From contig JBOEGF010000024.1 in NCBI GenBank assembly GCA_050633305.1, forward strand, positions 224,001-288,000: a stretch of 64,000 nucleotides of DNA, written 5' to 3'. Made by a program: the position numbers and the translations under genes. The notes under the pieces are model-generated. The model had not been told where the DNA came from, ran no database searches, and worked only from the letters and a program-made list of their open reading frames with translations. This document shows positions 6,904 to 64,000 of the stretch, piece by piece (the stretch's first letter is position 1; the number at the start of each line of letters is the position of its first letter). Source of the stretch: Nannocystales bacterium (GTDB lineage: Bacteria > Myxococcota_A > Polyangia > Nannocystales > Nannocystaceae).

Positions 6904-6960
6904 GATCCGAGCAGTATGGCACCGATTGTCGACGGCGGTTGGGCCGGCTACTCTCCGCGC

Positions 6961-7791
6961 ATGGTTTCGCTCTTCCGCCTTCGCACCCGTGCACCGCTGT
7001 GCCTCTTCACCGTGGCTCTCGCGACCGCCGGCCTGACGGGCTGCGACAGTGGCGACGACAACGGCGAGTCGAGTGGTTCGACCTCGGACGCATCGTCGAC
7101 CACCGACGACCCCTCGACGACCGCCGTGGCGTCCACCGGATCGACCACTGCCGTCGCGTCCTCGAGCAGCACCACGGACGAAGGAACCACCGGGTCGAGC
7201 ACGACCGCGGATGTCTCTTCCTCGACGACCGGTGAAGGGTCTTCCTCCACCGGACCGGTCTGTGAGCCGGGCACCGCGAACTGTCCTTGTGATGGTGATG
7301 TGTGCGAGGGCGACCTCGTTTGCACCGACGGCACCTGCTTCAACCCCGCAGGGTGCCAGGGCAAGCAGCAGGACACTGAGCCCAACGGCACCGAGGCGAC
7401 GGCGCAAGCCCTTGGCAGCGCGAACTGTGGCCAGCTGGCCGAGGTCTCCGGCAGCAGCGAGACCGACGACCTGGACTTCTACACGCTCGATGTCGTCGAC
7501 CTTGGCGCGGACTGTCCGAACAGCGACGGCACGATCTCGATCGTGACCGCGGACGAAGACCTCGAGGTCTGCATGTTCTTCGCGTGCGATGCCGGAGCCG
7601 CCTCGGTCAACTGTGGCGCCGATACGGACGCGACCTCCGAGGATGGCCTCGCAGGGTGTTGCGGCACCAACAGCGTTGAGCCTGGCTTCTTCTGCTCGGG
7701 CGTCAACAACGACAGCGAAGTCGTGTTCCGCGTCGGGGGCCTCGAGGCCAACGTCTGCGTCGACTACGCGCTGGCATACCGCGTCCTGTAG
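6961..7791 (+). CDS. Lipoprotein with Ser/Thr-rich linker, Cys-rich module and EPN/PPC-like C-terminal domain
   Basis: Lipobox LTGC; ~65-aa S/T/D/G linker; CEPGTANCPCDGDVCEGDLVC; DTEPNGT...DDLDFY. Confidence 0.8.
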   Translation: MVSLFRLRTRAPLCLFTVALATAGLTGCDSGDDNGESSGSTSDASSTTDDPSTTAVASTGSTTAVASSSSTTDEGTTGSSTTADVSSSTTGEGSSSTGPVCEPGTANCPCDGDVCEGDLVCTDGTCFNPAGCQGKQQDTEPNGTEATAQALGSANCGQLAEVSGSSETDDLDFYTLDVVDLGADCPNSDGTISIVTADEDLEVCMFFACDAGAASVNCGADTDATSEDGLAGCCGTNSVEPGFFCSGVNNDSEVVFRVGGLEANVCVDYALAYRVL

Positions 7792-48826: not shown

Positions 48827-51088
48827 ATGCCCGACGCCCCCAGCACCTCGCCACGGTACGACCTCTCTCGCCTCGGCCAGTTTCCCGAGTTGACGCCCGA
48901 CATCATGCGCGTTGCGTATCGCGAGGCTTGCATGGCTCGCATGCACGTGGAGCGCGTGGTGCAGGAGTGCCTCAAGGGAATCGTGAAGTTCGCGATCTGG
49001 GGTCCGGGCGAGGAGATTCACGGCACCGCGACCGCACTCGCAGCACACAGCGAGCTCGCCTTCGACAAGTTCGCGATCTGCGGCCACTACCGCAGCGCGT
49101 CGCTGTTGGGACTGTGGGCTCGACTGCAGGGCTACGAAGACTTCCACCTCGACCACATGCGCCAGCAGCTCTCGCGGAGCACCGACCCGTGGAGCGGTGG
49201 TCGCCAGATGACGGCCCACTTCAACGACATGCGCTTCGGCATCCTGCCGGTGCAGTCGGCACTTGGCATGCAGGTATCCAAGTCGGTCGGGTACGCCTAC
49301 GGCAACCAACTCAAGGGGCAGACCGACTCCGTCACGATGGCGGTGGTAGGCGATGGAACCTGTGCTGAAGGCGACCTCCACGAGGGCATGACCGGCGCCT
49401 CGATCCTCGGGCTGCCGTGGTTGCTTGTCGTCACCGACAACAACATCGCGATCAGCGTCAAGCCGGAGGACGGTCGCGGCATCCAGGACTTCGAGGCCTA
49501 CGCGAAGGCGTTCGGCTTCGAGTACTTCACCTGCGACGGCAACGACTTTCTCGAGGTGTACGAGACCAACAAGAAGGCGATGGCGTTTTGCCGGGACAAC
49601 CAGAAACCGGCCCTGCTTTGGGTTCGGAACCTGTCGCGCCTCAACGACCACAGCTCGGCGGCTGACGTCACCTTCAAGTTCGACCAACACGACCCGCTGC
49701 TCGACTTCGGCCAAGCGCTTGTCGACCAGGGCGTGCTGCAGGATGGCGACGTCGTGCGTCGCAAGGACGGCCAATCCAAGGACTACTTCCTCCGTCACGA
49801 CCTGGGCACGGTCGCAACCGCGGCCGATGAGTACATCGTAGGGACGATGGCGCAGGCCGAGTCCGAGCCCGAGCCCACCTACGACTCGGTGTTCGAGCAC
49901 ATCCGTGATCCGTTCCCCGAGTCGGTGGAAGCGCCGGTCGAGGGTCGCAACACGGTCATCTCGATCAACGGTGCGATGCGAGCCGCACTTGGGGCCATCC
50001 TCAAGGAGAACCCCATGACGTGGGTCTATGGGCAGGATGTGGGAGCCAAGGGAGGCGTGATGCAGGCCACGCGCGGCTTGTTCGACCAGTTCCCCGGTCA
50101 GGTCAAAGACGCTCCGATCAACGAGCCTCTCATCCTTGGCGCGGCCACAGGGTTCGCGCTTCACGAGGGCTCGACCGCGTTGCCCGAGATTCAGTTCAGC
50201 GACTACAGCCTCAACACGCTGCACTGGCTGGTCTACCTCGGCAACCTCCTGTGGACCTCCGGCGGAACGATTCACGCCAACGTGATCGTCCGGCTGCCCA
50301 CCGAGCCGTTGCATGGCGGAGCCGTGTACCACTCGATGTGCATGGAAGGCCTCTACGGGTCGATCCCTGGCCTGACGATCTGCGCGCCCACCACTTCGCG
50401 TGACATCTACGGGATGCTGCGGAGCGCGGCGGAGTTCACCGGACCGGTCGTGTTCTTCGAGTCCAAGGGCCTGTACCGCATGACGCTCGGCGATGCTTTC
50501 CCCGGGGAGCCCACCGACAAGGCCGAGGTCGCCAAGCTCAAGCGTGCGATCGCGTTCGAGGGCCACGCACCCGACATTCCCGACGACTTCCGGGTCCCCC
50601 TCGGCAAGGCTGCGGTCCGGCGTGAGGGCACCGACCTCAGCATCGTGACCTGGGGTCGCTGCACCTTGTTCGTGCAGACCGCCATCGAAACCCTGTCCGC
50701 TGCAGGCATCGATGTCGAGATGATCGACCTCCGCACGATCGTCCCGCCCGACCTCGAGACGGTGATGGCTTCGGTCTCCAAGACCCGTCGACTGCTCGTT
50801 GTGCACGAAGACCGGGTCTTCGCCAGCCTTGGTCGCGAGCTTCAAGGATCGGTGATCGAGGCGATGGCTGGTCAACCCTTGGCGACCCGGGTTCTGGGTC
50901 AGGACGCGGTCCCGGGCATCCCCCAAAACGCCCGCCTCGAAGAGCAGCTGGTCGTCTCGCCGGAAAAAATCATCAAGGCGGCACACGAGGTCATGGCGTT
51001 GCCGCTCGGCTCCGGTGGTGCCGCCGTGCCCGCTCCGGCTGCCGCTCCGGCGGTGCTCTGGACACCCAACCGCAACTTCGTCGCTTGA
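48827..51088 (+). CDS. 2-oxoacid dehydrogenase E1, fused alpha and beta subunits (branched-chain-like)
   Basis: SGGRQMTAHF, TPP motif GDG...DNN, GQDV, APINE, EIQFSDY, FFESKGLY, IDLRTI.P.D. Confidence 0.92.
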   Translation: MPDAPSTSPRYDLSRLGQFPELTPDIMRVAYREACMARMHVERVVQECLKGIVKFAIWGPGEEIHGTATALAAHSELAFDKFAICGHYRSASLLGLWARLQGYEDFHLDHMRQQLSRSTDPWSGGRQMTAHFNDMRFGILPVQSALGMQVSKSVGYAYGNQLKGQTDSVTMAVVGDGTCAEGDLHEGMTGASILGLPWLLVVTDNNIAISVKPEDGRGIQDFEAYAKAFGFEYFTCDGNDFLEVYETNKKAMAFCRDNQKPALLWVRNLSRLNDHSSAADVTFKFDQHDPLLDFGQALVDQGVLQDGDVVRRKDGQSKDYFLRHDLGTVATAADEYIVGTMAQAESEPEPTYDSVFEHIRDPFPESVEAPVEGRNTVISINGAMRAALGAILKENPMTWVYGQDVGAKGGVMQATRGLFDQFPGQVKDAPINEPLILGAATGFALHEGSTALPEIQFSDYSLNTLHWLVYLGNLLWTSGGTIHANVIVRLPTEPLHGGAVYHSMCMEGLYGSIPGLTICAPTTSRDIYGMLRSAAEFTGPVVFFESKGLYRMTLGDAFPGEPTDKAEVAKLKRAIAFEGHAPDIPDDFRVPLGKAAVRREGTDLSIVTWGRCTLFVQTAIETLSAAGIDVEMIDLRTIVPPDLETVMASVSKTRRLLVVHEDRVFASLGRELQGSVIEAMAGQPLATRVLGQDAVPGIPQNARLEEQLVVSPEKIIKAAHEVMALPLGSGGAAVPAPAAAPAVLWTPNRNFVA

Positions 51089-51106: not shown

Positions 51107-51943
51107 GTGGACTTCGGTGAAGACACGCTCCAAGTGGGCGGACTGACGCTCACGGGCGTTGCACGTGGGGGGATCGGCACGAGCCTGCGCGTGGCCGAGT
51201 TGGGCGTGCTGTTCGACGTGGGGGTCCCCGTGACTGGGCAGCTCAAGAACGCACGGATTCTGGTGTCACATGGACACCAGGACCATCTTGGTGGGCTGCC
51301 GTATCTCCTCTCGCAGCGCCACATGATGCAACAGGAGCCCTCGAACGTTCACGTGCCGCTCGAGATCCTCGATCCCTTGCAGCGCATCTTCGCCGCGTGG
51401 TCGGAGATTGAGGACTTCGAGATGGAAACGCGGTTGCATGGCCAGAGCCCCGGCGACGTCGTTGAGGTTCGCAAGGGGATCGATGCGGTGGCGGTGCGAT
51501 CGGTGCATCGTGTTCCGTCGCTTGCGTGGGTCATTCGGCGCCGCACGATGCGTCTCACGGCGGAGTTCTCCGAGCTACGGGGCGAGCAGATTCAAGCCCT
51601 CCGCGCCCAGGGGAAGACCGTCACCGAAGCCCATGTGGAGCCGGTGTTGTGCGTTACGGGGGACACGACGATCGAGCTCTTCGATCGGGAGCCATTGGTT
51701 CGCCAGGCCAAGGTCCTCGTGCATGAGGTGACGTCTTGGGACGACCGTCGCGGGGTGGAGCACACCCGAGCGTGGGGACACACCCATGTCGACGAGATCA
51801 TCGAGCGGGCCGAACAGTTCGAGGGGGACGCACTCGTGCTCGTGCACCGCAGCGCTCGGCACTCGAAGGCGCAAGCCGAGCAACTCGTTGCAGAGCGATT
51901 TCCGGCCTCGGTCCGGGACAAGGTTCATGTCTTCGGAAACTGA
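51107..51943 (+). CDS. Metallo-beta-lactamase-fold hydrolase, RNase Z-like (short-arm type)
   Basis: SHGHQDHLGG (HxHxDH), HRVPS, TGDT, HE, GHTH, VHRSAR. Confidence 0.85.
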   Translation: MDFGEDTLQVGGLTLTGVARGGIGTSLRVAELGVLFDVGVPVTGQLKNARILVSHGHQDHLGGLPYLLSQRHMMQQEPSNVHVPLEILDPLQRIFAAWSEIEDFEMETRLHGQSPGDVVEVRKGIDAVAVRSVHRVPSLAWVIRRRTMRLTAEFSELRGEQIQALRAQGKTVTEAHVEPVLCVTGDTTIELFDREPLVRQAKVLVHEVTSWDDRRGVEHTRAWGHTHVDEIIERAEQFEGDALVLVHRSARHSKAQAEQLVAERFPASVRDKVHVFGN

Positions 51944-53135
51944 CGGCGCCATCGTGATCCTCGGAGCCTCGTTCGCGGGCGTCGAGGTCGTCTACCAGCT
52001 GGTCCGAGCCTTCGACGGCAAGCCGCCGCCGCTGATCGTCGTGGACCGGCAGAGCGAGCACGGATACCTCCCTCTCGTGCAAGAGCGGTTGTGCGGCGTC
52101 CTCGACCCTGCCGAGTCTCGCCTCAATACGCGGGCGTTCGTCGAGTCTGTTCCCCAGGCCCGATACGTCCAAGGCGAGGTCGAGTCGTTCGACCCTGCGA
52201 CGAAGACGGTCAAGCTGGCCAACGGCACGAGCGAGTCCGGGCGCTTCGCGGTTGTGGCGCTCGGCTCTGGCTTCGAGGCGCCCGCGGGAATCGACGGGGC
52301 CCAGAATGTCCTTGGCTACAAGGGCGAGGCCGATTTCACGCGGGCTCACGAGGCCCTCCGCGGCCTGCTCGAGGGAGCGGAAGATCGGCCCGAGATCGTG
52401 GTGGTGGGCGGCGGGATCAGTGGATGCGAGCTCGCGGGGGAACTCGCGGCTCTCGCAGGGACGCGGCCGACGGGGTGGTCTGCACCCAAGGTTCGACTGG
52501 CGACCTCTGCGGCCGCTCTCGTAGACAGCATGGGAGCGGGGATCTCGAGCCGGGCGACCCGGGCCCTGGAGGCACAAGGGGTCAGCATCGATGTCTCGAG
52601 CCGCGTGCTCCGGGTCGCAGACGGCGAGGCTCACTTGGAATCCGCAGGGGCGACGAAGACGGTCCGGGCCGACCTCGTATTGTGGGCTGGTGGCATCCGC
52701 CCTGCACCCATTCTCGAGCAACTGGGCCTTCCCCGGACCGACGACGGCTGGCTCAGCGTGGGCCCGACGCTGCAGTGTTTCGCAGAGCCTGAGATGACCA
52801 AGCCCGACATCTTCGCGTGCGGAGACGCCGTGCGGGTGCGCGGCGGGGACGGCGAGTGGCCGACGATGCAGCGCGCGATCGAGTGCATCTGGCAGGCCAA
52901 GGTCGTGGCGCGCAATATTGCGGAGCTTCACGAACAGCCCACCGACTACGACGAGGGCGTTCCGCCGCTACAGCCTCACAAACTGCGCTCGGAGTTCTTC
53001 TACGGGCTCAGCCTGGGTGCGCGTTCGATGGTGCTGTATCGGGGGATGGGTCTCGACATGCCGGGCATCAACCATCGCTTCCGGCGGTGGCTGATGCGTC
53101 AGTACTTCGCTCGCTACGCTCCACTCCCGGGCTGA
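51927..53135 (+). CDS. NAD(P)/FAD-dependent oxidoreductase, NDH-2-like
   Basis: ILGASFAG, VVALGS, VVGGGISGCELAGE, VLWAGG, FACGD; 17-nt overlap with the upstream gene. Confidence 0.85.
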   Translation: MSSETDGAIVILGASFAGVEVVYQLVRAFDGKPPPLIVVDRQSEHGYLPLVQERLCGVLDPAESRLNTRAFVESVPQARYVQGEVESFDPATKTVKLANGTSESGRFAVVALGSGFEAPAGIDGAQNVLGYKGEADFTRAHEALRGLLEGAEDRPEIVVVGGGISGCELAGELAALAGTRPTGWSAPKVRLATSAAALVDSMGAGISSRATRALEAQGVSIDVSSRVLRVADGEAHLESAGATKTVRADLVLWAGGIRPAPILEQLGLPRTDDGWLSVGPTLQCFAEPEMTKPDIFACGDAVRVRGGDGEWPTMQRAIECIWQAKVVARNIAELHEQPTDYDEGVPPLQPHKLRSEFFYGLSLGARSMVLYRGMGLDMPGINHRFRRWLMRQYFARYAPLPG

Positions 53136-53253
53136 GTCCGGCGGGGCGCCGGCGCTGACAGCCGACCGCTGTTGGCTTGTGAGCGGGGGGCGGGCTGTTC
53201 CAGGGGTCGACGGATCGTCGGCAGGCCGAGGCGGCGGGTGCTAGCGTTGGGTT

Positions 53254-54258
53254 GTGAGGGGACGGGCCCGAGCTCGAGTCGGAGCCACGCGTTGCGGGAG
53301 TCCCGGTCCGCTGGCCTACACGCTCGGGTTGGCCTTGGCCGCTTGCGGCGGCCATCCTCGCATCGACCAACCGCCGCTCACGGCACCCGCTGGTTTCGAG
53401 ACGCTTGCGGGAGCGCGAGATGTCCCGCTGCAGTTCTCCGCGAGCATGCCCTCGGGCGAGCCTCGTGGTGTGATCTACTTCGTGCTCGGGCCAGAGATCG
53501 GCAGGCACGCGCCCTATCCCGAGTTCAGGGCCATGGCCCACGACGCGGGGTACGTGGTGGCCAGTCTGCACCCACGGGGCAGCGGATACTCTGCGGGCCT
53601 CCGCGGCGACATTCGCCGCTACCCGCTCGTACTCGATGACCTTCGACTCGGCTGGGAAGAGCTGGCCCGGCGTTTTCCTGACACCCCGCGCTTCCTGTTC
53701 GGCCACAGCGCGGGCGGACCCCTCGCGCTCGAGGTCGCCGCCACCTCCGATGTCGCCCCAACGGGCGTCATCCTCATCAATCCCGCCTACCGTCTTCGGT
53801 TTGCCGAGGGCATGGGTCCCAGCGCTCGCGACTACTTCGTCTACGCGCTCAACTTCATCTTTCGGCCCTGGGCGTTGACGGTCGACATGAACCGCGAGCC
53901 CTCGGCAGTCCGCTTCGAGCCGGACCGCTTGGAGGCCGAGGGCATGCACGCCGATCCGCTGGTGGTGCGCTACTTCAGCCTGCGCTACTTGTCGGCTCAG
54001 CGGAGGGTGATGAAGCGTAGCTCCAAGAACGCTGCGAAGGTCCGCGCCCCGATTCTGGTCGTACAGGGACATCATGACGCCCTGGTCGACCCCGCGGGCA
54101 ACGACGAGATTCTCGACGCCGCGCCGACGACGGACAAGCGGAAGCTCATCGCGGCCGAAGGTGGCCACGGGTCGAGCGCGGTGGAGACGAAGGTCGAGGC
54201 CCTGCTCAACTGGCTCGATGAGCATTCGGGCCATGGGGGAGTCCAGAGCACACGCTGA
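53254..54258 (+). CDS. Alpha/beta hydrolase, lysophospholipase-like (possible lipoprotein)
   Basis: RGSGYS, GHSAGG, QGHHDALV, GGH; LAAC lipobox-like. Start uncertain. Confidence 0.85.
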   Translation: MRGRARARVGATRCGSPGPLAYTLGLALAACGGHPRIDQPPLTAPAGFETLAGARDVPLQFSASMPSGEPRGVIYFVLGPEIGRHAPYPEFRAMAHDAGYVVASLHPRGSGYSAGLRGDIRRYPLVLDDLRLGWEELARRFPDTPRFLFGHSAGGPLALEVAATSDVAPTGVILINPAYRLRFAEGMGPSARDYFVYALNFIFRPWALTVDMNREPSAVRFEPDRLEAEGMHADPLVVRYFSLRYLSAQRRVMKRSSKNAAKVRAPILVVQGHHDALVDPAGNDEILDAAPTTDKRKLIAAEGGHGSSAVETKVEALLNWLDEHSGHGGVQSTR

Positions 54259-54381
54259 GGTCCGCTCGGGAATCCGACCCCGGGCGGCGCTCGAGCAGCA
54301 GCGCGAGCAGGCAAAGCTTAGGGAGGAGCAAGCCCGGGAGGCACGTCCGTACGATGGCGAGGTGCCGAGCGTGGCGCGAGG

Positions 54382-56973
54382 TCAGGCCTTCTCGATACGG
54401 CCGCGGCCGAGCTTGAATGAGAACATCCCGTTGATAGGATCGGTGGTGTTGCTCACCACGTTGTTGGCGGCGGTGTCCAACTCACCAAGGTAGTTGAAGT
54501 ATGCGCAGCTGACCCCTGGCTGCAGTCCGTCGGTGAGTATCGCGACCGCCGAGAACGAACCGTGCGAACCTACGACGCGGACTGGGTCACCGTCGGCAAT
54601 TCCGGCCGCGCCGGCGTCGATGGGATTGAGCTCGAGCGTGTTCTCAGGCATCTGCTCGATGCGATGCGCAATCCGACGGTCCTCGATCATTGCACTCCAT
54701 GTCCGGGAGTCGCGACGGTTGATGACCCAGAGTTCGCCGTCCCGGGGTGCGAGTGACTCGTGGCGATCGATCACGTCGTTCCAATCGCCGATTGCGAACA
54801 CCGCTTTGCCCGACGCGGTCTTGAACGCACCCCGGTCCCCGGCGGTTTGCTCCGCGGTCTCGGCGTCATGGAACCGCGGCGTTTCACGGAGTCTGCCGTC
54901 CTCGACGTAGATCGGGCACTGATACCCTTCGGTGCCTCGCTCGGCCAACAGGTCCCGGGCTGGGCGGCCTTGACGCTGTGCCTCCTCGACCAGGGCGCCG
55001 TAGGCTTGGGTTCCGCCTGACTTCGGTCCAGCCTCTTCGAAGATCTCATCTCCGGTGGCCCAATCGAAGCCGTCGTAGCCCATACGCCGAGCGACATCGG
55101 CAATGATCTGCCAATCGGTTCGCGCCTCGCCGGGCGGGTCGCAGATCTGTGCGTAGTAGCGAAGACGACGCTCGCCCTGCATCCGGGTAAACGCTGCCTC
55201 CCCCCATGACGCGGCGGGCAGGACGATGTCCGCGAGCTCGGTGAGCGCTTGGGGGTAGATGTCCTGTTGCACGAGGATCATGCCGCCCGCGTCGGCTCGG
55301 GCAGCAAGCGTATCGACGACAGTGTCGATGTCGACTCCCGAGGAGCTGATCACATCGGCGGCGAGTTGCGGGCTGCCGACCAGCTCGCGCACGCGTTCGT
55401 GGAGCACGGAGGCGCCCGCGGTGCCGCCTCCGGCCCACGTACAGCCGATCACCCAGGCCATCCGCAGGTTTCCGTCGAGCACCCACTGGTCCAGGTTGAG
55501 CCCCGCCGTTCGGCCTTGCAGACTGTGCGGCGACTTGTCCTTGGGATACGAGGCGGACTTCATCATGCCTCGCTGGTGCCCTCCACCGCGGGAGATGACG
55601 CGGCCAGGACGGTTTCCTGCGCCGAGCACCAAGCCGAGGCTCACCAACGACGCACTGCCGGGGAAGTTGTGCGCCCAGTAGTTGCCCTTCTCCAGCATGA
55701 AGGAGGTTCGAGGCGCCCGCACGGTACCGGTCTCGTCGACGCGCGGCTCGGCCAACAAGGATGCGGCCAGTTCGATCTTTTCCGCCGGGACGCCTGTAAT
55801 CTGCGCGGCCCGTTCGAGGCTGTACGTCTCATCTGCGAGCAGGAACGAGCGATAGGCGTCAAACGTGGCGCCGTAGGCTTCGCGCATCCCATTGGCCTCC
55901 GCTTCGGCCGCAAACTCCGCCTCGGTGACCACGAAGGACTCGATCCATGCGTCGTCCTGCCACCCCCGCTCGACGACGAGTCGGGCGATCGCATTGTTGA
56001 GCACGGTGTCCGTGCCTGGCTTCAGCTGCAGGTGCACGCCGCCGTGGTCTTCGGCCCATTGCGCCGCAACGTCGCGGCGTGGGTTGACCACGACGAGCGC
56101 CTTCTGGGCGTTGCCCTCGTCATCGACAAAGGGCGATGAACTGGGCGTCGCTCGGACCCAGTTGGAGAACAACACGCCTCGCGCTTCGTAGATCGCGACT
56201 CCGGAGACGAACACCACGTCCGCATCACGCCAATCGGGATACCCGGCGCTGAAGGCATCAACCCCAGCGACGGACAGCCCGGGGGTGGAGGAACCATCGC
56301 GCGGCTGATCGTGCGGAGCCCAACACGGGGTCTGCACCTTCTCGAATGCGAGCTTCGTGATCGCGTAGGTGTTCTCGTAGAACTGGTACGAGTACGTCTT
56401 CATGCCCCACGCCAGCTCGGAGTGGGTGTCGATGATGTGGCGGCTGAGCCGGGCTACGATTTCGCTGGCCTCGTCCCAAGAAACCTCGACCAACTCGCCG
56501 GCCACCCGCAGTTGCGGCCGTAGCAGTCGGTCGCTCTTCCGCTCGTCGGCGCGCGAGTAGAGCCGCCGAGCGAGAGTTGCCCCGAGGCTGTAGTCGCCAC
56601 CCACGTTGACCACCTCGGCCTTCCAGTCGGGCACGACCACGACGTGGTGGGGCATGCCGTCGACCTCGACGACGTTGTGCTGGTTGGGCGATATCCACGG
56701 CAACCCGGTCGTTGGGAGGTCGACACCCAGTGCGTTCTCATCCGCACCGAGTCCGCCTGGCTCCGCATCGACCGGCCACCGATAGATGCGGTAGCCGCAG
56801 CCCACAATGCAGAAGGCGCACGCGGACGTGAGCTCCTTCGCCGTGGTGGGGGGAATGTAGTAGTTGGGCTTCGCGGTTTGCTCCGCGCTCGCCGCCGCCG
56901 GCATCGAGACCGCGCCCCCTGTGGCGAGTGCAAGCTTCGCAAAACGCCGTCGACCCAAGCGTTCGCGACTCAT
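54382..56973 (-). CDS. DMSO-reductase-family molybdoenzyme large subunit, arsenite oxidase AioA / iodate reductase IdrA-related
   Basis: CAFCIVGCGY (CX2CX3C, 3Fe-4S-type), WISPNQHN, MKTYSYQFYENTYAITK, EKGNYW, RGGGHQRG, QDIY, ADIVLPAA, GERRLR, C-terminal molydop-binding domain. Confidence 0.9.
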   Translation of the reverse strand: MSRERLGRRRFAKLALATGGAVSMPAAASAEQTAKPNYYIPPTTAKELTSACAFCIVGCGYRIYRWPVDAEPGGLGADENALGVDLPTTGLPWISPNQHNVVEVDGMPHHVVVVPDWKAEVVNVGGDYSLGATLARRLYSRADERKSDRLLRPQLRVAGELVEVSWDEASEIVARLSRHIIDTHSELAWGMKTYSYQFYENTYAITKLAFEKVQTPCWAPHDQPRDGSSTPGLSVAGVDAFSAGYPDWRDADVVFVSGVAIYEARGVLFSNWVRATPSSSPFVDDEGNAQKALVVVNPRRDVAAQWAEDHGGVHLQLKPGTDTVLNNAIARLVVERGWQDDAWIESFVVTEAEFAAEAEANGMREAYGATFDAYRSFLLADETYSLERAAQITGVPAEKIELAASLLAEPRVDETGTVRAPRTSFMLEKGNYWAHNFPGSASLVSLGLVLGAGNRPGRVISRGGGHQRGMMKSASYPKDKSPHSLQGRTAGLNLDQWVLDGNLRMAWVIGCTWAGGGTAGASVLHERVRELVGSPQLAADVISSSGVDIDTVVDTLAARADAGGMILVQQDIYPQALTELADIVLPAASWGEAAFTRMQGERRLRYYAQICDPPGEARTDWQIIADVARRMGYDGFDWATGDEIFEEAGPKSGGTQAYGALVEEAQRQGRPARDLLAERGTEGYQCPIYVEDGRLRETPRFHDAETAEQTAGDRGAFKTASGKAVFAIGDWNDVIDRHESLAPRDGELWVINRRDSRTWSAMIEDRRIAHRIEQMPENTLELNPIDAGAAGIADGDPVRVVGSHGSFSAVAILTDGLQPGVSCAYFNYLGELDTAANNVVSNTTDPINGMFSFKLGRGRIEKA

Positions 56974-57521
56974 GAGCCCGCCTCCTCGACTTGCGCCGCC
57001 GCGTCGACCGTGGCCAGCGCGTCTGCTTCCGACAGAGGGTCACCAAACGCGGGACGGGTCTTCCCCAGCGCGACGACCGTGTTCCCCCGGACCTCGAGTT
57101 CGATCCGCGCAAGGTTGGAGCACGCCCGGCCGTGGACCAGCCGGCCGTCGTTGCGGAGGCTGAACAAACTCTGGTGGCAGGAGCACGGACCGAAGTGTCC
57201 GGTCTCGGGGTCTGCCGCGGAGGGGTCGATCGGACAGCCCATGTGTGGACACAGCGTCGAGTAGGCGACGATGTTCTGGTCGGGGCCGACACCATGCTGC
57301 GCCGGGCCCCGGAGCTTCACGGCGAAACACAGCGGACCGTGCCCGAGGCTGAACGCGATTGGGGTTCCGTCGTCGAGTTCATCGAGTTCTGCAACGCGGA
57401 TGATCTCGTCGGTTGTCCCGTCGGTGCCGCACGCTGCTGCGAGCAGTGCCGAGGGGGCGATGAGCGCCGCTCGGCCGAGGGAACGACGGGAGATGTGTTT
57501 TGACTCGTGAGCCTTGGACAT
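56970..57521 (-). CDS. Rieske 2Fe-2S small subunit, AioB/IdrB-related, Tat lipoprotein-like
   Basis: ISRRSL...LAAAC; GVGPDQNIVAYS; CPHMGC and GPCSCH; ATGA overlap with the large subunit. Start ATG 57521. Confidence 0.9.
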   Translation of the reverse strand: MSKAHESKHISRRSLGRAALIAPSALLAAACGTDGTTDEIIRVAELDELDDGTPIAFSLGHGPLCFAVKLRGPAQHGVGPDQNIVAYSTLCPHMGCPIDPSAADPETGHFGPCSCHQSLFSLRNDGRLVHGRACSNLARIELEVRGNTVVALGKTRPAFGDPLSEADALATVDAAAQVEEAGS

Positions 57522-58268
57522 CGACGCTTCCGACGACGAAGTAAGAGGGAGTTGAGAATGAGGTGCCACTGAACTTCGGGGCCTCGGCTCCATCGCGGCG
57601 GCGGGTTTACAGCATCGGAGACCGAGTCTGGGCGTGCGGATCTCCTGGACGACCGAGCTGCAATACGCTCGGCAGGCCGGGGCCCCTCAGCCCCCGAACC
57701 ACCGCCTACAAGGCCCTAGGTGTACGTGCTCTCGCGCGCAACCGCGCACCGCTCAGCCGCCGATGCGAGACATCTCTCAGACCCCGTCATCGGGAAGGGC
57801 CTGGTGCCGGCGGGCTGGATTGGCCGCGCGTCATTGGCGCGGCCAGGCTCGATGTGGGCTGTGTTTCTCTTTTCATCCGCCGTCGCGCAGGGTCCGCAAC
57901 CGCCGGCCACAGGGCAACCAGGCTCGTAGACAGGTCGTGAACGGCTGTTCGGCTCCCTCGTGGACCCGGGAGGCCCAGGCCCACGACGTGCGGGGGCGTG
58001 CTGTACGCGGTGCGTGATGACCGCGGAACCCGGGCGACCGGTCGAGGTACGGGCCGCCTCAATCGTCGAGCACTGGAGGGAGCCGGCGGAGTGGACGGGC
58101 CATCGGCCGGTGTTGCAGGCAAACCAGCCTTGGCTCTAGGCCGCGCGCTCATCCGGCGCGGGTGTGGGTTTGCGGGCCGACAGGGCCGGCCGACCCCGGG
58201 AGCAACGACCCGACTCACATCGTGCTGGGTTCGAGCGCCTCCGGCATGGCCCAGCCGAGGTCCGGAAC

Positions 58269-58946
58269 TCAATCCGAGTTCGCGGAGAGGTACTCCTCGA
58301 GCGTCACCGGAGACTCGAGGACGAAGGTCTTGCCGCTGCGCTTCATGGCTTGGATGCTGTCGACTCGGAAGTTCCGGAAGTCTCCACGGAGCTCACACCA
58401 CGCGCCCAGGGACCAGTGTCGTCCCCAAAAGAAGAGGCCCAGGGGACGAACGTGGCGGTGCGTGAGCGCATCGGTTCGGTCGAGGTAGCTCAACTCGAGG
58501 ACTTCGCGGCGGTCGATTGCGCTGCGTAGGGGCCCCAGTCGCTTCCGGGCCTCCTTGGGAACGTGGAACGAGATCGCGTGCATCGAGGTCGCGTGCACAC
58601 GGGGTCGCTGGCTTGCCGGGAGGGCGGCCTCGACCTTCTCGAGAGCGCTCCGGGCCGCGCCACGGAGCTCGGCGTCGGCCCAGCTCTCGACCATGCGGGC
58701 ACCCAAGACGAGCGCCTGAACCTCCGCGTGGGTGAACATCATCGGTGGAAGCTCGAAGTCCTTGCCCAGCCGATACCCCACGCCGGCCTCGCCCTGGACC
58801 GGGACGCCCGAGCCGGTCAGGTCCTTGATGTCGCGGTACACGGTGCGCTCGGAAACATCCAAGCGCTCGGCGAGCATGGCGGCCGTGGTGAGGCGGCGGT
58901 GCTGGAGGATCTGAATGATCTGAAAGAGCCGATCCGCGCGGCGCAT
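58269..58946 (-). CDS. HTH-WYL transcriptional regulator (YafY-like)
   Basis: MRRADRLFQII, LAERLDVSERTVYRDI, GEAGVGY, WSLGAWCELRGDFRNFRVD. Start ATG 58946. Confidence 0.93.
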   Translation of the reverse strand: MRRADRLFQIIQILQHRRLTTAAMLAERLDVSERTVYRDIKDLTGSGVPVQGEAGVGYRLGKDFELPPMMFTHAEVQALVLGARMVESWADAELRGAARSALEKVEAALPASQRPRVHATSMHAISFHVPKEARKRLGPLRSAIDRREVLELSYLDRTDALTHRHVRPLGLFFWGRHWSLGAWCELRGDFRNFRVDSIQAMKRSGKTFVLESPVTLEEYLSANSD

Positions 58947-59043
58947 CTGGTCAACCGTTGCGCCGTGGCCGGAAAAAGTCCAGCGGTGGAGCTTGCAGCG
59001 AGCGCGCCGAAAAACCCGGACGAGGGCTGATAGCCTGCTGCGT

Positions 59044-60021
59044 GTGCGGACGTTGACAGCAATCGGAGTCCTTCTGGCTGTGGCGTGCTCGGCCGGCGGT
59101 GCCCCACAACTTGCAACGAGGCCGTCTTCGGCACCCGATGCTGCGCCGGCTTCGTCGGCCCCGCTCGCTCCCCCCACGGCAGGTGCTGCCGCGGAGCCTC
59201 GGCCGCTGCCGGTTGCGAGGAGCCCGGGACAGGGCTTTCGGGCCCCCGTCGTGGAGACGGTCCGGGTGACCACCACGACCGAGGTGCGGGTGATGCTCAA
59301 ACGTGCGGACGCGGTCGCGCCTTGGATGGGCACGGTCCGGTACACGGCCGAGCCCTACAGCCTGACCGGACGCCCGAGGAAGGGCGTGATTCGGGAGCGA
59401 GACGTCTTGGGGTCTCGACACGCCCTCGATCTCAACGGCGACGGTGACACGAAAGACCGGTTCGGCAGCGGGTGTGACGAGGCCGGGTTCTCGCTGGGCA
59501 AGACGCTTCGCCTCGACCCGGTGATGACGGGGCCCGCCGGGCAGCGGCGCTACGCGTACGCGGCCGACGACGGTCAGACTCGTATCGGGAGCTTGGGCAA
59601 TCGCGGTGCGTCGGCGATGCTCTACCTCGCGTGCGCCGACGATGGGACGGTGAGTCTCGGTTGGTCACCCCGGCCCATCGAGGTTCGCGAGATCGCAGGC
59701 CCGGCGCTGATGGTGTTGGCCTTTGGCAATCCCACGCTGGCTCCGTCGATCCCCACCGATGGGGTTTCGCGGACTCCCGAGCGCGACGGGCTGGCCGAGC
59801 AGCGCTTCGACATCGAGGTGTTTGAGCCGGTGGTCCAGCAGGCGCACTGGTATGCGGTCGCGGGCGCCATGGTGCAGGTCGATCCCGATGCCCAAGAACA
59901 AGAGATTCGGGTGTTCTTTGATGGCGACATCGAGCACGTTCAGATCGCGCTCAACGAGGGCAACGACGCAGTGGACCGGGCGCGGAGCTACGTCTCGACG
60001 CAGACCATTGGGTCCCGCTAG
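59044..60021 (+). CDS. Putative lipoprotein of unknown function
   Basis: LLAVAC lipobox; Pro/Ala linker; DLNGDGD Ca-binding-like loop. Start uncertain. Confidence 0.7.
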   Translation: MRTLTAIGVLLAVACSAGGAPQLATRPSSAPDAAPASSAPLAPPTAGAAAEPRPLPVARSPGQGFRAPVVETVRVTTTTEVRVMLKRADAVAPWMGTVRYTAEPYSLTGRPRKGVIRERDVLGSRHALDLNGDGDTKDRFGSGCDEAGFSLGKTLRLDPVMTGPAGQRRYAYAADDGQTRIGSLGNRGASAMLYLACADDGTVSLGWSPRPIEVREIAGPALMVLAFGNPTLAPSIPTDGVSRTPERDGLAEQRFDIEVFEPVVQQAHWYAVAGAMVQVDPDAQEQEIRVFFDGDIEHVQIALNEGNDAVDRARSYVSTQTIGSR

Positions 60022-62444
60022 CGGACGGCGAAGCTGACGCCTTCGAAGGCCGTCGCGAGGTTGGGATCTGCCGGACGGGCGTAGACCTCGTGGTCCCCGG
60101 GCCCCAGGCGAGCCAGGATTCGAAACGGGGCGGGGGACGCTCCGACCGACTCCCCGTCGACGATGAACTCGACCGTCTCAGGCTGCTGTTGCATGGGCCC
60201 TCGCCATGCGGCGGTGAGCTCGACGCGGTCCTCGTCCCGCCCGTCGTGCCCGAGCATGATCACGGCGCCGCGATTCGGGCTGGTCATGCTCAGGGTGGGG
60301 CGGCCGGGTGCCTCCGTGCAGTCGGCGACGTCGTGGGTTCGGACCCACGCAACCCCATGCGGGTCCACGCCCGGCGCTCCGGGACGGAGTGATTCGAGCC
60401 AGCTGTCGTAGGCGGGAGGGAACACGGCGACGACCGTGTCTCCATCCGGGGCGCAATGCAGACCCTCAGAGGTCTCGCGTACAGTCCTGTGGAGGGCGCA
60501 CGGTTCGGTGGGCGTCGCGTCCGAGGCGAAGCGTCGCGCAACCGAGTCTGGGCACGCGTCGGTCGCCACAGCCCCGGACAGCGAGCACACGTGGGCGACG
60601 TGAAGCGCGTCGCCCGGCCACAGGGGCCCCCGAGTTGCGACATCTTGCATGGCGCGGCGCATGAGGTCTGCGAACAGAGGGCCCGCACCGGAGCCGCCGG
60701 TGACCTTGTTCATGGGGGAGCCGTCGGCATTGCCCAGCCACACGACGACCGTGCGCTCGTGGGTGAATCCAGCCGTCCAAGCGTCGCGGTACCCTGAGCT
60801 GGTACCGGTCTTGAGCGCGAGCGGGTAGCCGATGTCGAACGGGCTGTGTCCTTGCAGCAGGCGCAGACGGGCGCCGGGGTCGGAGAGGGCTTCGACGACG
60901 GCCGCGGTTGCGCCCCGTGGGAGGACGCGTTGGGGAGCGGCGGAGGGGTCGCCTTCGCGGAGCCGGAGGTCGATCGCCTCACCGGTTCGGGCGAGCGTGA
61001 CGTAGGCACGGGCGACCTCGAGGGGGGTGACTTCGCCGCTTCCCAGTGCGACCGAGAGACCGTAGTGCTGCGCGGACCGATCGAGACTCTCGAATCCCAG
61101 CGCGAGCAGTCGATCCAGCAACACCCCGTCTCCTTGCGATGCGACGAGCTCCGAGGCCAACCGGACGACGGGGACGTTGAGGCTCGCGGCAAGGGCCTCG
61201 CGGGCGGAGATCGGGCCGAGGTACTCCCCGCTGAAGTTTCGCGGCGCATACACGCTCCCCCCGCCCTCGACGAACTCGGTCGGCACATCCGCGAGCATCT
61301 GTGAGCCATGGTGGCCGTGCTCGAAGGCCAGTCCGTAGATGAAGGGCTTGAGCGAGGACCCGGGCTGGCGGCGAGCACGGAGCATGTCCACCTGGCCCGC
61401 GATCTCGGGGTCGAAGAAGTCCGCGCTTCCGACGTAGGCCAGGACGTCGCCGGTCGAATTGTCGACGACAACGGCCGCCGCGTTGTCGACGGCGCGTTCC
61501 CGCATCTTGGTCATGTGGGTCTCGATGAGGCCTTCGACGTCGCGTTGAAGCGTGGCGTCGAGTGTTGTTCTCGTGCGCTCCCCATCGGCCAAACGTCGCT
61601 CGCCGTGGAGCATCTGAACGAAGTGCGGGGCCTCGAAGGCGTGTGAGAGCGGGCGCAGGACGATCGGCTCGTTGCGGGCCCGAAGCGCTGCGGGACTCGC
61701 CAGCAGCTCGGATTCTTCAAGCTGGTCCAACAGCGCGGCTTGGCGGAACTCCACCCGTTGCGGGTGTTGGTACGGGTCGAGGTACGACGGCGAGCGCGGC
61801 AGGACCGCGAGATAGCTGGCCTGGCCCCAACTCAAGTCCCGCGCATGGACGCCGAAATAGCCCTGCGCCGCAGCCTCGGGCCCAACCCAGCCGTGCCCAT
61901 ACGGGAGGCGGTGGAAGTAGGCTTCGAGAATGGTCTCCTTGGAGGCTTCGTCCTCGAGGTTTTGGGCGCGAGCGGCTTCGCGGAGTTTGACCGCGAGGGT
62001 GCGCTGTGCAGACGTCCCACGGGTGTCGAGGAGCTTGACGAGCTGCTGCGTCACCGTGCTGGCGCCGGAGATGACCTCACCGTGCCGAACGTTCTGTTCC
62101 ACGGCTCGCAGGATCGCGAGGCGGTCCACGCCGTCGTGGTCGATGAAGCGCGCGTCCTCGGCGGCCAACGTGGCGAGCACGAGCCGCTCCCCAACCTGGT
62201 CCAGCGGAATGGGACGGCCCCGTCTTCCATCCGCGGTGGGCAACTCCCGCAGGAGTTCACCGTTTCGGTCCTCGATGCGGTGACCGCTGTACCAGTCGTC
62301 CTCGAGCAACGACCCGGGGTCGCCCGCCTGCTGACGGTAGGTGTGCCAGCCGAGCCACGCCAAGACGGTCGTTAGCAGCATCACCAGGCTCAGTCGCCGT
62401 GCCCAACGACGACTGGGGAGAGGGCGAGCGACCGGGGTGTTCAT
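60018..62444 (-). CDS. pbpC: Penicillin-binding protein 1C
   Basis: Transglycosylase AEDARF..H.GVD and GASTVTQQL; transpeptidase GSSLK, SLN, KTGTS; PBP1C C-terminal domain; directly downstream of alpha-2-macroglobulin. Confidence 0.93.
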   Translation of the reverse strand: MNTPVARPLPSRRWARRLSLVMLLTTVLAWLGWHTYRQQAGDPGSLLEDDWYSGHRIEDRNGELLRELPTADGRRGRPIPLDQVGERLVLATLAAEDARFIDHDGVDRLAILRAVEQNVRHGEVISGASTVTQQLVKLLDTRGTSAQRTLAVKLREAARAQNLEDEASKETILEAYFHRLPYGHGWVGPEAAAQGYFGVHARDLSWGQASYLAVLPRSPSYLDPYQHPQRVEFRQAALLDQLEESELLASPAALRARNEPIVLRPLSHAFEAPHFVQMLHGERRLADGERTRTTLDATLQRDVEGLIETHMTKMRERAVDNAAAVVVDNSTGDVLAYVGSADFFDPEIAGQVDMLRARRQPGSSLKPFIYGLAFEHGHHGSQMLADVPTEFVEGGGSVYAPRNFSGEYLGPISAREALAASLNVPVVRLASELVASQGDGVLLDRLLALGFESLDRSAQHYGLSVALGSGEVTPLEVARAYVTLARTGEAIDLRLREGDPSAAPQRVLPRGATAAVVEALSDPGARLRLLQGHSPFDIGYPLALKTGTSSGYRDAWTAGFTHERTVVVWLGNADGSPMNKVTGGSGAGPLFADLMRRAMQDVATRGPLWPGDALHVAHVCSLSGAVATDACPDSVARRFASDATPTEPCALHRTVRETSEGLHCAPDGDTVVAVFPPAYDSWLESLRPGAPGVDPHGVAWVRTHDVADCTEAPGRPTLSMTSPNRGAVIMLGHDGRDEDRVELTAAWRGPMQQQPETVEFIVDGESVGASPAPFRILARLGPGDHEVYARPADPNLATAFEGVSFAVR

Positions 62445-64000
62445 GGTGTGACCACCACCGTCGCGTCTTTGGAGTACCCCGTGCTGTCGGGCTCGTACAT
62501 CAGCTCCGCCATGGCGGGCGGCACGGTGTATTGGCCGGGCGTCGTGGCTCGCATGGTGTACGTCCCCGCCACGTACTCGCCCCAGAACCGGTCGAAGTAC
62601 AGATGCACTCGGTCGTCGCGCATCTCGACGTAGCTCGCGTCCGCCGAGCCCCACTGCAGCAAGTTGTACATTGGGTGGGCGTCGGTGAGCTCGGCGGGTC
62701 GAGAGACCGTCCACAGATCTGGCTGGATCGGTTCGAATCCGGCTGGCAAGCGGTCGGTCATCGCCAGGTAGCCACGTCGGTCATGTTCGAGCTCGCTGGG
62801 CATGCGGGCCAAGAGCGCGACGCGGACGACCGTGCCCGGAGCGACCCCACTCATGTCGACGGGCTCCCCCTTGGCGGTGGTGTAGAGCCGGTAGACCTCG
62901 GGACCCTTGACGGCGGAGGTCTCCACCTGCGTGTCGCCGGCTGTGAAGGGGCGGCGCCATGCCGCCCCGACTTGGAACGAGACCGGAGTCTCCCCGGTCG
63001 TCTCGAGTCGGAGGACCGCATGGCGGCCGGCCACGTCCGCGAACGGGATGGTGAATGCCCCGGCGCCCGACCCCATGCTGGAAGACCCCTCCATCGTGGA
63101 GGTCAGCGGTACGCCGTCGAGGCGGGCCACAACACGAGCATCCTCGCCCTCATCGCTGACCACCTTCTCACGCAGGGCCAGCAGACCGAACGCCGTGGCT
63201 TGGGTTGTGTACGAACCCGTCTTGCGGACGAGCGCGTCGACCAGGGTTGGAATGAGCGTCGAGGTCGCCCGCAGTCGGACCAATGCGAGCGCGGCTTGGG
63301 CCTGGGTTCGGGTGGTCGAGCCGTAGTAGTAGAAGTCACTGTCCTCGTCCTTCTTCTTCGGGGAACCGTCGGCTTCGAATGCGGCCTCGACGGCGTCGAG
63401 GGCTTGGTTGACCTGGTCCTCGTGTCCTTCGAGGCTCGAGAGCGCCAACGCGACGGTCGCGGATCCAAACGGACCCTGGTTGGGCAGCGTGTCCACCAAC
63501 ATGTCTGCAGCCGACTCGGGGAGGGCCCCCGCTTCTGCGAGTGCGAGCGCGATCGAGGCTCGTTGCTCGACGTCGCGTCGCGCCGTGCTGCTGGTGTCGT
63601 CGAGGCGGCCTGCAAGGTACTCGGTGACCTCGTCGAGCAAGCCGGGGACTTCGATGCCCTGCTTCTTTGCCAGCGCGATCGCTCGTGCTGCGTAGGCTGT
63701 GCCATAGAGGTTGGGTTCGGTGCCGCCGGGCCAGTACGCCAGCCCACCGCTGCTGGTCTTCATGGTGGCCAGCCGCTTGAGACCTGCGAGTGCCATCGCA
63801 TCGATTTCCTCCTCACTGAACCGGAACAGGCCCAGTCGGGGGAGGACGTCACGCGCGGCAAGCAGCGGCAAGGTGGACGAGGTGGTCTGCTCGACACACC
63901 CGTGCGGATAGTCGATGAGGTACTCCAGTCGGCTGCCCAGCTCGGGCCACGCATGGTGCCCCATCGTGATCCTCAGGACGGCGTCGCGCGAGAGGTCGGT
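62441..64000 (-). CDS. Bacterial alpha-2-macroglobulin, C-terminal part (5' truncated by the window)
   Basis: YPHGCVEQ thioester motif, DRLPAGFE, RATTPGQYTVPPA, MYEP; frame open to the window edge. Confidence 0.93.
   Translation of the reverse strand, partial: TDLSRDAVLRITMGHHAWPELGSRLEYLIDYPHGCVEQTTSSTLPLLAARDVLPRLGLFRFSEEEIDAMALAGLKRLATMKTSSGGLAYWPGGTEPNLYGTAYAARAIALAKKQGIEVPGLLDEVTEYLAGRLDDTSSTARRDVEQRASIALALAEAGALPESAADMLVDTLPNQGPFGSATVALALSSLEGHEDQVNQALDAVEAAFEADGSPKKKDEDSDFYYYGSTTRTQAQAALALVRLRATSTLIPTLVDALVRKTGSYTTQATAFGLLALREKVVSDEGEDARVVARLDGVPLTSTMEGSSSMGSGAGAFTIPFADVAGRHAVLRLETTGETPVSFQVGAAWRRPFTAGDTQVETSAVKGPEVYRLYTTAKGEPVDMSGVAPGTVVRVALLARMPSELEHDRRGYLAMTDRLPAGFEPIQPDLWTVSRPAELTDAHPMYNLLQWGSADASYVEMRDDRVHLYFDRFWGEYVAGTYTMRATTPGQYTVPPAMAELMYEPDSTGYSKDATVVVTP

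Follow-up and report, generated by a model that had tools for sequence, protein, structure and literature searches.

A Rieske–molybdoenzyme operon in a Nannocystales genome belongs to a branch beside the iodate reductase IdrA

We analysed a 64,000-nucleotide stretch of a Nannocystales genome (assembly GCA_050633305.1, contig JBOEGF010000024.1, positions 224,001–288,000; hereafter the window, numbered from its first letter), which carries a two-gene operon encoding a Rieske protein (P0002) and a molybdenum enzyme (P0001) of the family that contains the arsenite oxidase AioBA and the iodate reductase IdrAB. On the minus strand, the Rieske gene (57521–56970) is followed by the large-subunit gene (56973–54382), and the two overlap in the sequence ATGA. 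An earlier note, made from the sequence alone, had described this coupled Rieske-then-large-subunit operon; both open reading frames and the overlap were found, and the motifs it quoted (twin-arginine leaders, CX2CX3C, HDQPRDGSS, RGGGHQRG, CPHMGC and CSCH) are all present. The features of the operon are as follows.

57429..57521, minus strand: predicted leader of the Tat-lipoprotein type on the Rieske protein (SRRSL...LLAAA-C31), from sequence
56970..57521, minus strand: Rieske [2Fe-2S] small subunit of the AioB/IdrB family (P0002), 183 aa, ATG at 57521
57174..57251, minus strand: the CPHMGC and CSCH boxes of the Rieske cluster, including the C96/C115 disulphide pair, then Ser118 of the high-potential type
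56982..56987, minus strand: Shine-Dalgarno-like GAGGAG, 8 nt upstream of the large-subunit ATG
54382..56973, minus strand: molybdenum-bis(pyranopterin guanine dinucleotide)/[3Fe-4S] large subunit (P0001) of the IdrA-sister branch, 863 aa, assigned by domains, trees and a fold model
56884..56973, minus strand: predicted Tat signal peptide of the large subunit (GRRRFAKL, hydrophobic region, cleavage site A28-S-A30)
56797..56820, minus strand: [3Fe-4S] motif C52-x2-C55-x3-C59, invariant
56581..56589, minus strand: S129-L-G131, the S-x-R-G loop with its arginine (NT-26 R104) deleted, from alignment
56368..56391, minus strand: S195-YQFYENT, a short IdrA-type loop in place of AioA D169-HGGAGGG
56287..56313, minus strand: H221-DQPRDGS-S229 (H199...R201...E207 in AioA; H...K...D in IdrA)
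55567..55590, minus strand: R462-GGG-H466-Q-R468-G (RGGGHQRG, 462–469), with R468 at the AioA E453 site, as in IdrA
54712..54717, minus strand: R753-R754, of which R753 is specific to the sub-branch without the Fe-S/pterin arginine

P0001 contains the domains PF18465, PF00384 and PF01568, and P0002 matches PF00355. The large subunit scores above the cut-off of NCBIfam TIGR02693 (385.7 bits against 359), a model that is uninformative as a test of AioA membership because Idr-type proteins pass it too (433 and 459 bits); the Rieske protein falls below that of TIGR02694 (78.5 bits against 95.65). The top solved relative of P0001 by sequence is AioA (261 bits), and its predicted structure (predicted local distance difference test score, pLDDT, of 92.3) superimposes on AioA structures with a template-modelling (TM) score of ~0.8. 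Membership of the Aio/Idr family is indicated by the CX2CX3C...S motif, the adjacent Rieske gene and the AioA-like predicted fold. A start further downstream would undo the leader of the large subunit; the GAGGAG lies 8 nt before the ATG at 56973, so the twin-arginine leader belongs to the P0001 protein. The operon is single-copy in an 11-Mb genome (92% complete), and the nearest named homologues of P0001, from Nannocystaceae, are 62–71% identical. A promoter scan returned no sigma-70-like site and a terminator count no higher than chance, and third-codon-position GC content of the operon (0.79–0.80, against 0.80–0.85 in the neighbours) gives no sign of recent transfer. Among the sequencing runs listed as containing the sequence none was of RNA; the single DNA run, from a microbial mat metagenome and sharing 0.53 of the words, may be the source sample.

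For phylogenetic analysis, references were taken from plasmid records and comprised AioA from three sources (NT-26, Thermus HB8 and Hydrogenophaga), a Vibrio cluster, and IdrA from A. hydrophilus NCP973, a strain confirmed to reduce iodate (PMC13455634). To these were added 120 listed of 764 homologues, 77 genome loci, 76 metagenome loci and representatives at the 50% level. Trees were built with FastTree on 198 and 95 rows and with IQ-TREE on 32 chosen rows, and approximately unbiased (AU) tests were run on 20 rows. The two programs concur on the main groups and place AioA far from P0001. One node with 100/100 support in IQ-TREE joins three groups, whose mutual order the trees leave unsettled: IdrA with its cytochrome c peroxidase (CCP) loci (100/99), a small group with a single CCP, and a 14-row clade (97/98) in which P0001 stands with Dehalococcoidia and Myxococcota-type proteins. 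The AU test rejected both a grouping of P0001 with AioA (p-AU 1.2e-5) and its nesting inside IdrA (p-AU 1.4e-4), which upholds the earlier proposal that the enzyme branches separately from the characterised AioA and IdrA proteins. P0001 belongs to a Myxococcota/Dehalococcoidia branch beside the iodate reductase IdrA. It is 50–80% identical to proteins of its sub-branch, 51–55% to the Dehalococcoidia members, 38–49% to 56 Idr-type proteins and 30–31% to AioA (n = 3). With only three AioA rows available, 15 alignment columns are common to the branch and IdrA against AioA, and none is common to the Myxococcota-type group and AioA against IdrA. In a Rieske tree (129 columns), the Dehalococcoidia subunits cluster with IdrB (support 97).

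The conserved active-site residues reported for NT-26 AioA are D169, H199, R201, E207, K413, R447, H451 and E453 (PMC10448176), and these eight second-sphere sites read DHREKRHE in AioA, SHKDKRHR in IdrA (a consensus derived in this analysis, not from a paper) and SHQSKRHR in P0001. The window enzyme therefore matches the Idr consensus at 6/8 sites and AioA at 4/8, the AioA-like residues retained being H221, K429, R462 and H466. Its HDQPRDGSS segment (221–229) aligns to HNRPAYNSE of AioA, and the alignment confirms that YSYQ and HD.P are IdrA-type motifs, as the note had suspected. Among 56 Idr-type proteins, S169 occurs in 53 (with three gaps) and K201, D207 and R453 in 55 each. The absence of the AioA glutamate, put forward as a distinguishing feature, is the Idr state, since the glutamate is replaced in nearly all Idr-type proteins (Asp in 55/56, Ala in 1/56). 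All 48 Dehalococcoidia-type proteins carry SHKDKRHR, the same as IdrA. Within the Idr clade, too, the K/D pair is not constant: it is T/A in the Vibrio THAF190c cluster and T/S or Q/D elsewhere. Q223 and S229 are found in 19/19 and 17/19 of the proteins closest to P0001, and the private states of this sub-branch include F198, C511, G516-G517 and R753. The replacement of three acidic residues by Ser, Ser and Arg would suit the binding of an anion, not that of neutral As(OH)3. The choice of substrate is narrower than the note's list (iodate, antimonite, arsenite or other) allows, the large subunit being IdrA-type.

Both subunits carry predicted export signals for twin-arginine translocation (Tat). 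The N-terminus of P0001 (MSRERLGRRRFAKLALATGG...ASA/E) is a twin-arginine leader with an AxA site, in which R8 and R9 are invariant across 29 aligned rows; in the Rieske leader the RR pair is invariant as well, and a lipobox-like cysteine is present in most Myxococcota-type homologues. This conservation supports the earlier prediction of twin-arginine signals on both subunits. By a rule of our own (RR plus a hydrophobic stretch, with truncated gene calls among the misses), 90/111 branch proteins have a large-subunit leader (51/63 Myxococcota-type, 31/38 Dehalococcoidia-type and 8/10 other), as do 16/16 proteins of the sub-branch nearest P0001. A similar rule applied to two-peroxidase Idr-type loci gave 1/80, a spurious upstream extension. 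A lipobox-like cysteine occurs in 60/90 of the large-subunit leaders; the 16 large subunits closest to P0001 are without it, and their Rieske partners carry the cysteine instead. The NCBIfam Tat model TIGR01409, which is insensitive on known substrates, matched neither N-terminus of the operon; it also misses NCP973 IdrB and scores NT-26 AioB below its cut-off, and it passes a Dehalococcoidia homologue (L012, 25.2 against 16.7 bits). Some close relatives of P0001 (P0018, P0020, P0022 and L027:7650) keep the RR pair and have lost the hydrophobic region, a degenerate signal. Large subunits starting with a Tat signal were also seen in deep AioA-like lineages below AioA (P0299, P0302, P0314, P0317 and P0325); P0302 matches PF10518 at about the cut-off, and P0302 and P0325 are without the H199 equivalent. 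From these leaders we infer that both subunits are exported by Tat, with a lipid on the Rieske protein tethering the pair at the membrane. IdrA is reported to have no signal peptide (PMC8692401), and the molybdenum subunit of the Aio family is described as without a Tat signal, Tat signals on both the A and B subunits being reported for Ttr (PMC2500031, PMC13673990). A dual Tat arrangement is therefore new for the Aio/Idr family in the literature examined, with precedent in the superfamily, and the branch would be a naturally occurring departure from the hitch-hiker export of Aio/Idr large subunits.

The Rieske ligands C91, H93, C113 and H116 are invariant in 28 rows; the roles of the disulphide and serine are taken from PMC3758308. 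The extra cysteines had been read as Aio-like, but NT-26 AioB is described as lacking the disulphide (PMC3758308) and Dehalococcoidia Rieske proteins that group with IdrB have it, so the disulphide is no marker of Aio. A model of the complex between the two subunits reached an ipSAE of 0.91, against 0.00 for the best of three controls, with 100% agreement between runs and partner pLDDT values of at least 89; the mark applied is reached by 116/157 solved pairs and 2/215 mismatched pairs. This pass may stem from likeness to solved AioAB.

A further feature, absent from the earlier note, is the deletion of an arginine between the Fe-S cluster and the pterin together with a linked arginine elsewhere. 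The arginine of the S-x-R-G loop is present in 53/53 Idr-type and 45/47 Dehalococcoidia-type proteins and in 0/73 Myxococcota-type proteins. It aligns with the lysine of C-x-K-G in Fdh/Nas outgroups and, on this alignment, would be the equivalent of K44 of FdhH. Arg753 is found in 72/73 Myxococcota-type proteins and in none of the Idr-type or Dehalococcoidia-type groups; across the collected proteins it is present in 46/48 that are without the loop arginine and in 0/147 that bear it, with 51 not parsed. The loss and the gain are one evolutionary event rather than many. In the complex model, loop 126–133 and residues 755–757 contact a single Rieske patch (residues 128–132), and it is plausible from this model that Arg753 compensates for the deleted arginine. 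For FdhH K44, non-basic substitutions are reported to leave <0.23% activity, the lysine being needed both for activity and for retention of the cluster (PMC12176258). The branch is a natural exception to the 'essential' Lys/Arg at this junction. In 6/6 pairs, non-synonymous divergence (dN, 0.15–0.28) is well below synonymous divergence (dS, 1.1–1.4), giving dN/dS of ~0.14–0.23; such purifying selection argues against decay of the operon.

The genomic context was then compared with that of Idr clusters. In A. hydrophilus NCP973 and further loci the order is idrP-idrP-idrB-idrA, and peroxidase genes are reported to precede idrAB (PMC8801600). Idr clusters therefore also run B-then-A, gene order does not tell Aio from Idr, and the view that a Rieske-first order is Aio-like and that IdrAB runs A-then-B has to be given up. 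A 'GTRN' loop, which may be an IdrP contact, is present in 76/80 two-peroxidase loci and in 0/38 loci assigned to the branch by tree or identity, some of which are partial or near-duplicate. The genome's 16 CCP/MauG matches include none in the window and none linked to the operon. An IdrP query gave no match in 5/5 Dehalococcoidia genomes or in genome G117, with no known-positive control genome for the query, and matched at only 31–41% in four other carrier genomes. AioX and AioS had no genome match at E<=1e-8. Among 105/128 candidate neighbour open reading frames scanned, the ars, aio, chlorite dismutase (Cld), CCP and cytochrome c families were all missing, and the scan returned a single cupredoxin and a single additional Rieske protein. 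A mobA-like gene lies downstream in 5/23 loci and nothing else functional recurs, so that guilt by association yields no recurring partner beyond it. The genome carries tatC, moaA, moeA, a mobA-like gene and a Rieske/cytochrome b complex, as well as a NapA-like enzyme and, on another contig, acr3. The window and the locus survey thus bear out an orphan module without aio, ars or peroxidase companions, and the search for partners elsewhere in the genome that had been suggested ended with no aioX or aioS, with CCPs that are unlinked and at most 36% identical to IdrP, and with moaA and moeA present.

The operon occurs in 4/60 relatives. Among 401 genomes of the phylum, the branch was found in two, Idr-type clusters in four others and AioA-type genes in two; in the class Dehalococcoidia the branch is present in 5/301 genomes. 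The operon is an accessory module that lies in a variable segment:

53148..59027: variable segment with a hydrolase, the operon and a WYL regulator, missing or altered in other genomes of the genus

In the same-genus genomes G002 and G004 the flanks join across the entire 53.15–59.0 kb segment, G006 retains the WYL gene alone, ~6 kb of different DNA occupies the site in G003, and G005 has the operon elsewhere.

We are confident of the position and anatomy of the branch as described above. For its function, the reading that we favour, while giving it somewhat less than an even chance, is a membrane-tethered, peroxidase-independent iodate reductase; action on iodate, by reduction, or on another small anion is more likely than oxidation of arsenic. 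In this scheme the Mo/[3Fe-4S] and Rieske subunits would be exported by Tat and pair, held at the membrane by the lipid on the Rieske protein. Electrons would pass from quinol through a bc complex to cytochrome c or a cupredoxin, and then by way of the Rieske cluster and the [3Fe-4S] cluster to molybdenum. The anion would bind in the funnel where D169, E207 and E453 of AioA are Ser, Ser and Arg, and removal of an oxygen atom would convert iodate to hypoiodous acid (HOI), which would disproportionate or be scavenged abiotically, as in the published IdrAB model (PMC8692401). At a low flux of iodate, general peroxide defences would replace IdrP, and the role would be that of an auxiliary electron sink or of detoxification at low oxygen rather than full iodate respiration. 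IdrP has been assigned to detoxification, not catalysis, with cytochrome c as donor (PMC8692401), its role has also been called unclear (PMC10149662), and aerobic marine bacteria are reported to reduce iodate via Idr at low oxygen (PMC11445184). The reverse reaction, oxidation of iodide to iodate, was rejected on thermodynamic grounds (+0.72 V, PMC8801600, against +0.13 to +0.27 V for the Aio Fe-S centres, PMC3758308).

Several observations weigh against iodate reduction. A linked CCP is present in 0/38 branch loci, 19 of which extend for 3 kb or more to each side, and idrABP1P2 synteny is reported to be kept across the IdrA clade, including confirmed iodate respirers (PMC8692401, PMC8801600). 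The best CCPs of the genome are just 35–36% identical to IdrP, Cld was not found in the genome (92% complete), and no iodine-related gene is among the 105/128 neighbour frames scanned. In the 73 Myxococcota-type rows, site 201 is Q in 35, K in 24, S in nine, A in three and R in two, and site 207 is S in 37, D in 34 and P in two. The P0001 sub-branch leaves IdrA at K>Q223 and D>S229 and at 10 further private states, and these private states include loss of the arginine equivalent to FdhH K44. The Myxococcota-type Rieske protein, which retains the disulphide and serine, forms a long separate branch outside the IdrB group. The published 'unknown clade' outside IdrA includes arsenite-oxidising haloarchaea (PMC8692401), and the literature searched gives no assay of any branch member.

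A serious competitor, which we rate a little below the favoured reading, is the same anatomy in a Myxococcota-type sub-branch that has shifted to a different anion. The enzyme might oxidise an oxyanion that is pyramidal and carries a lone pair (sulfite, selenite/tellurite, nitrite or phosphite), its electrons running along a high-potential Fe-S wire to cytochrome c and on to a terminal oxidase; alternatively, it might reduce another oxyanion (chlorate, bromate or antimonate). A cationic R468 beside Q223 and S229, conserved in 19/19 and 17/19 of the closest proteins, the private F198, C511, G516-G517 and R753, and the lost R104 equivalent are consistent with such a shift. So are a Rieske disulphide and serine typical of higher-potential clusters (PMC3758308), a cupredoxin directly upstream in one Dehalococcoidia locus, and loci of which none surveyed has a peroxidase, Cld or quinol-oxidising partner. 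However, IdrA is the nearest characterised enzyme and the Dehalococcoidia members match it at 8/8 sites, the neighbourhoods hint at no alternative substrate, and these Rieske residues are reported to move the potential by tens of millivolts only (PMC3758308) and do not decide in which direction the enzyme works.

A bolder proposal, doubtful in our estimate, is that the branch is a third functional Aio/Idr class, dual-Tat, lipid-tethered and peroxidase-free across Myxococcota and Dehalococcoidia, with a Myxococcota-type sub-branch in which the Fe-S/pterin junction is rewired and whose substrate would be an anion that no known enzyme of this kind handles. On this tentative view, the loop arginine was deleted and Arg753 would be supplied from domain IV; selenite or sulfite oxidation, or non-respiratory iodate reduction, would be the candidate activities, each put forward with the same reserve. 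The public annotation 'arsenite oxidase' of both genes would then be a mis-annotation, a claim no firmer than the proposal that contains it.

We consider it unlikely that the operon encodes what that annotation says, a divergent arsenite or antimonite oxidase that would detoxify As(III)/Sb(III) outside the membrane. TIGR02693 is passed, but Idr-type proteins pass the same hidden Markov model and a grouping with AioA is rejected. H221, K429, R462 and H466 are kept within a predicted AioA fold and alongside a disulphide-bearing Rieske protein, whereas none of D169, R201, E207 and E453 is retained; NT-26 activity is reported to fall by 30% with D169A and by 65% with E453A (PMC10448176). The genome has acr3 on another contig, yet no aioX or aioS match, and no ars or aio family is among the 105 neighbours. 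The IdrA outgroup is reported to include arsenite-oxidising Halorubrum (PMC8692401); no Halorubrum-named protein was among the 120 listed matches to the acidic member P0115, most of which are nameless. A decaying or non-catalytic copy, in which loss of the Fe-S/pterin arginine disabled electron transfer, is very improbable: it would fit the reported need for the equivalent FdhH lysine in activity and cluster retention (PMC12176258) and the patchy distribution, but the deletion is fixed in 73/73 proteins 50–80% identical to P0001, cluster and Mo-site residues are invariant, dN/dS is ~0.14–0.23 and Arg753 was gained in 72/73.

Other loci and genes were noted in the course of the survey. The phylum's Idr-type clusters have an adjacent peroxidase (L189–L192 and L195, in G305, G216, G089 and G397), as does L085, a Dehalococcoidia record. 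The sister group (L017:7117–13225, L112, L113 and L170) combines a single linked peroxidase, which lies downstream in L017, with a Rieske protein that has no disulphide and a large-subunit leader with RR and no hydrophobic stretch; it may stand midway between Idr and the dual-Tat enzymes. In the Dehalococcoidia locus L018, a cupredoxin gene (6762–7175) immediately precedes the Rieske gene in the same orientation, and its product is a candidate electron partner. In one Dehalococcoidia genome (G586) the operon is present twice (L203:10465 and L204:10705), with a GAF/PAS histidine kinase close to each copy. In two related Dehalococcoidia genomes (L202:1933–6188 and L205:9447–13726) the operon is flanked by genes for lipoyl synthase, lipoamide dehydrogenase and E1, and in the window a gene judged by eye to encode a fused E1 (48827–51088) is 3 kb from the operon and also occurs in relatives without it. 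Lipoamide enzymes are classic arsenite targets; the proximity is probably a coincidence. The neighbours of the operon (51107–54258, 58269–58964 and 60018–64000) include an RNase Z-like metallo-hydrolase, an NDH-2-like flavoprotein, a serine hydrolase and a helix-turn-helix WYL regulator, and, by eye, PBP1C-like and alpha-2-macroglobulin-like genes. Elsewhere in the genome are a Tat-type NapA-like gene slightly below the cut-off (L091, G000:C10, 892 bits) and a formate dehydrogenase-like gene in which a single in-frame TGA likely encodes selenocysteine (L090, G000:C23:29942–31213). A further AioA/IdrA-family clade of 1100–2100 aa proteins (P0272, P0285, P0291–P0294, P0297, P0300, P0303–P0312, P0315, P0316 and P0320) has YEYQYLENT, HDRPS and GGHQKG motifs and no signal peptide, and was matched to no paper. 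In some of its members the protein is fused to another domain: LodA_N (P0292; P0312 at the cut-off), flavin amine oxidase (P0272), cytochrome c together with sugar dehydrogenase (P0285) or, by eye, an N-terminal Rieske (P0320).

How the family passed from arsenite oxidation to iodate reduction, and what IdrP does, are treated as open questions, and PMC8692401 calls for work on just these outgroup proteins; the branch is a natural two-gene test case without IdrP. Should the branch reduce iodate, any survey that demands idrABP1P2 counts too few iodate reducers, and genes labelled 'arsenite oxidase' in genomes of Myxococcota and Dehalococcoidia are wrongly credited to arsenic metabolism. Were that reduction non-respiratory, as one form of the bolder proposal has it, reactive iodine would be released outside the cell of a predatory bacterium and would help to explain iodide in oxygenated settings. 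If it does not reduce iodate, the branch holds new chemistry within the family.

Among known systems, tetrathionate reductase TtrAB belongs to an unrelated subfamily, with a 4Fe-4S partner and the membrane anchor TtrC. It is a DMSO-reductase-family precedent for Tat signals on both a molybdenum subunit and its Fe-S partner (PMC2500031). The 'unknown clade' outside IdrA of Reyes-Umana et al., with Halorubrum/Halobiforma and the Dehalococcoidia protein MBT97654.1 and without peroxidases (PMC8692401), resembles the present branch as an uncharacterised, peroxidase-less IdrA outgroup with a Dehalococcoidia member; the accessible part of that paper describes no Myxococcota members, large-subunit signal or active-site comparison, and the same holds for the literature searched, mostly without subscription papers. 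MBT97654.1 and WP_007141861.1 were not met in 20 cluster look-ups or among 120 listed matches to P0115. The branch is probably the same as, or overlaps, that clade. AioBA of NT-26, Alcaligenes faecalis and Thermus resembles the window enzyme in its fold (TM ~0.8, predicted), its Rieske plus Mo/[3Fe-4S] design, its H/K/R/H core and its gene order, and the Rieske disulphide is as in the A. faecalis type; in contrast, P0001 is only 29–31% identical, D169, R201, E207 and E453 are all replaced, and there is no aioXSR or ars context. The window enzyme is not AioBA. IdrAB of Pseudomonas sp. SCT, Denitromonas IR-12 and A. hydrophilus NCP973 is the nearest characterised system (P0001 is 39% identical to NCP973 IdrA) and shares the B-then-A order, the [3Fe-4S] motif, the SYQ.EN loop, the HD pair and an arginine at the E453 site. 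Unlike IdrAB, the window operon has no idrP, has its own Tat-like leader on a large subunit without the GTRN loop and other IdrA insertions, and encodes a Rieske protein with a disulphide and a lipobox-like cysteine; P0001 further differs from IdrA in K>Q, D>S, the deleted Fe-S/pterin arginine and its separate clade. Of the features that define idrABP1P2, linked peroxidases, nesting in the IdrA clade and a leaderless large subunit are all missing here, and the window enzyme would, on the favoured reading, work like IdrAB yet stands outside the idrABP1P2 system.

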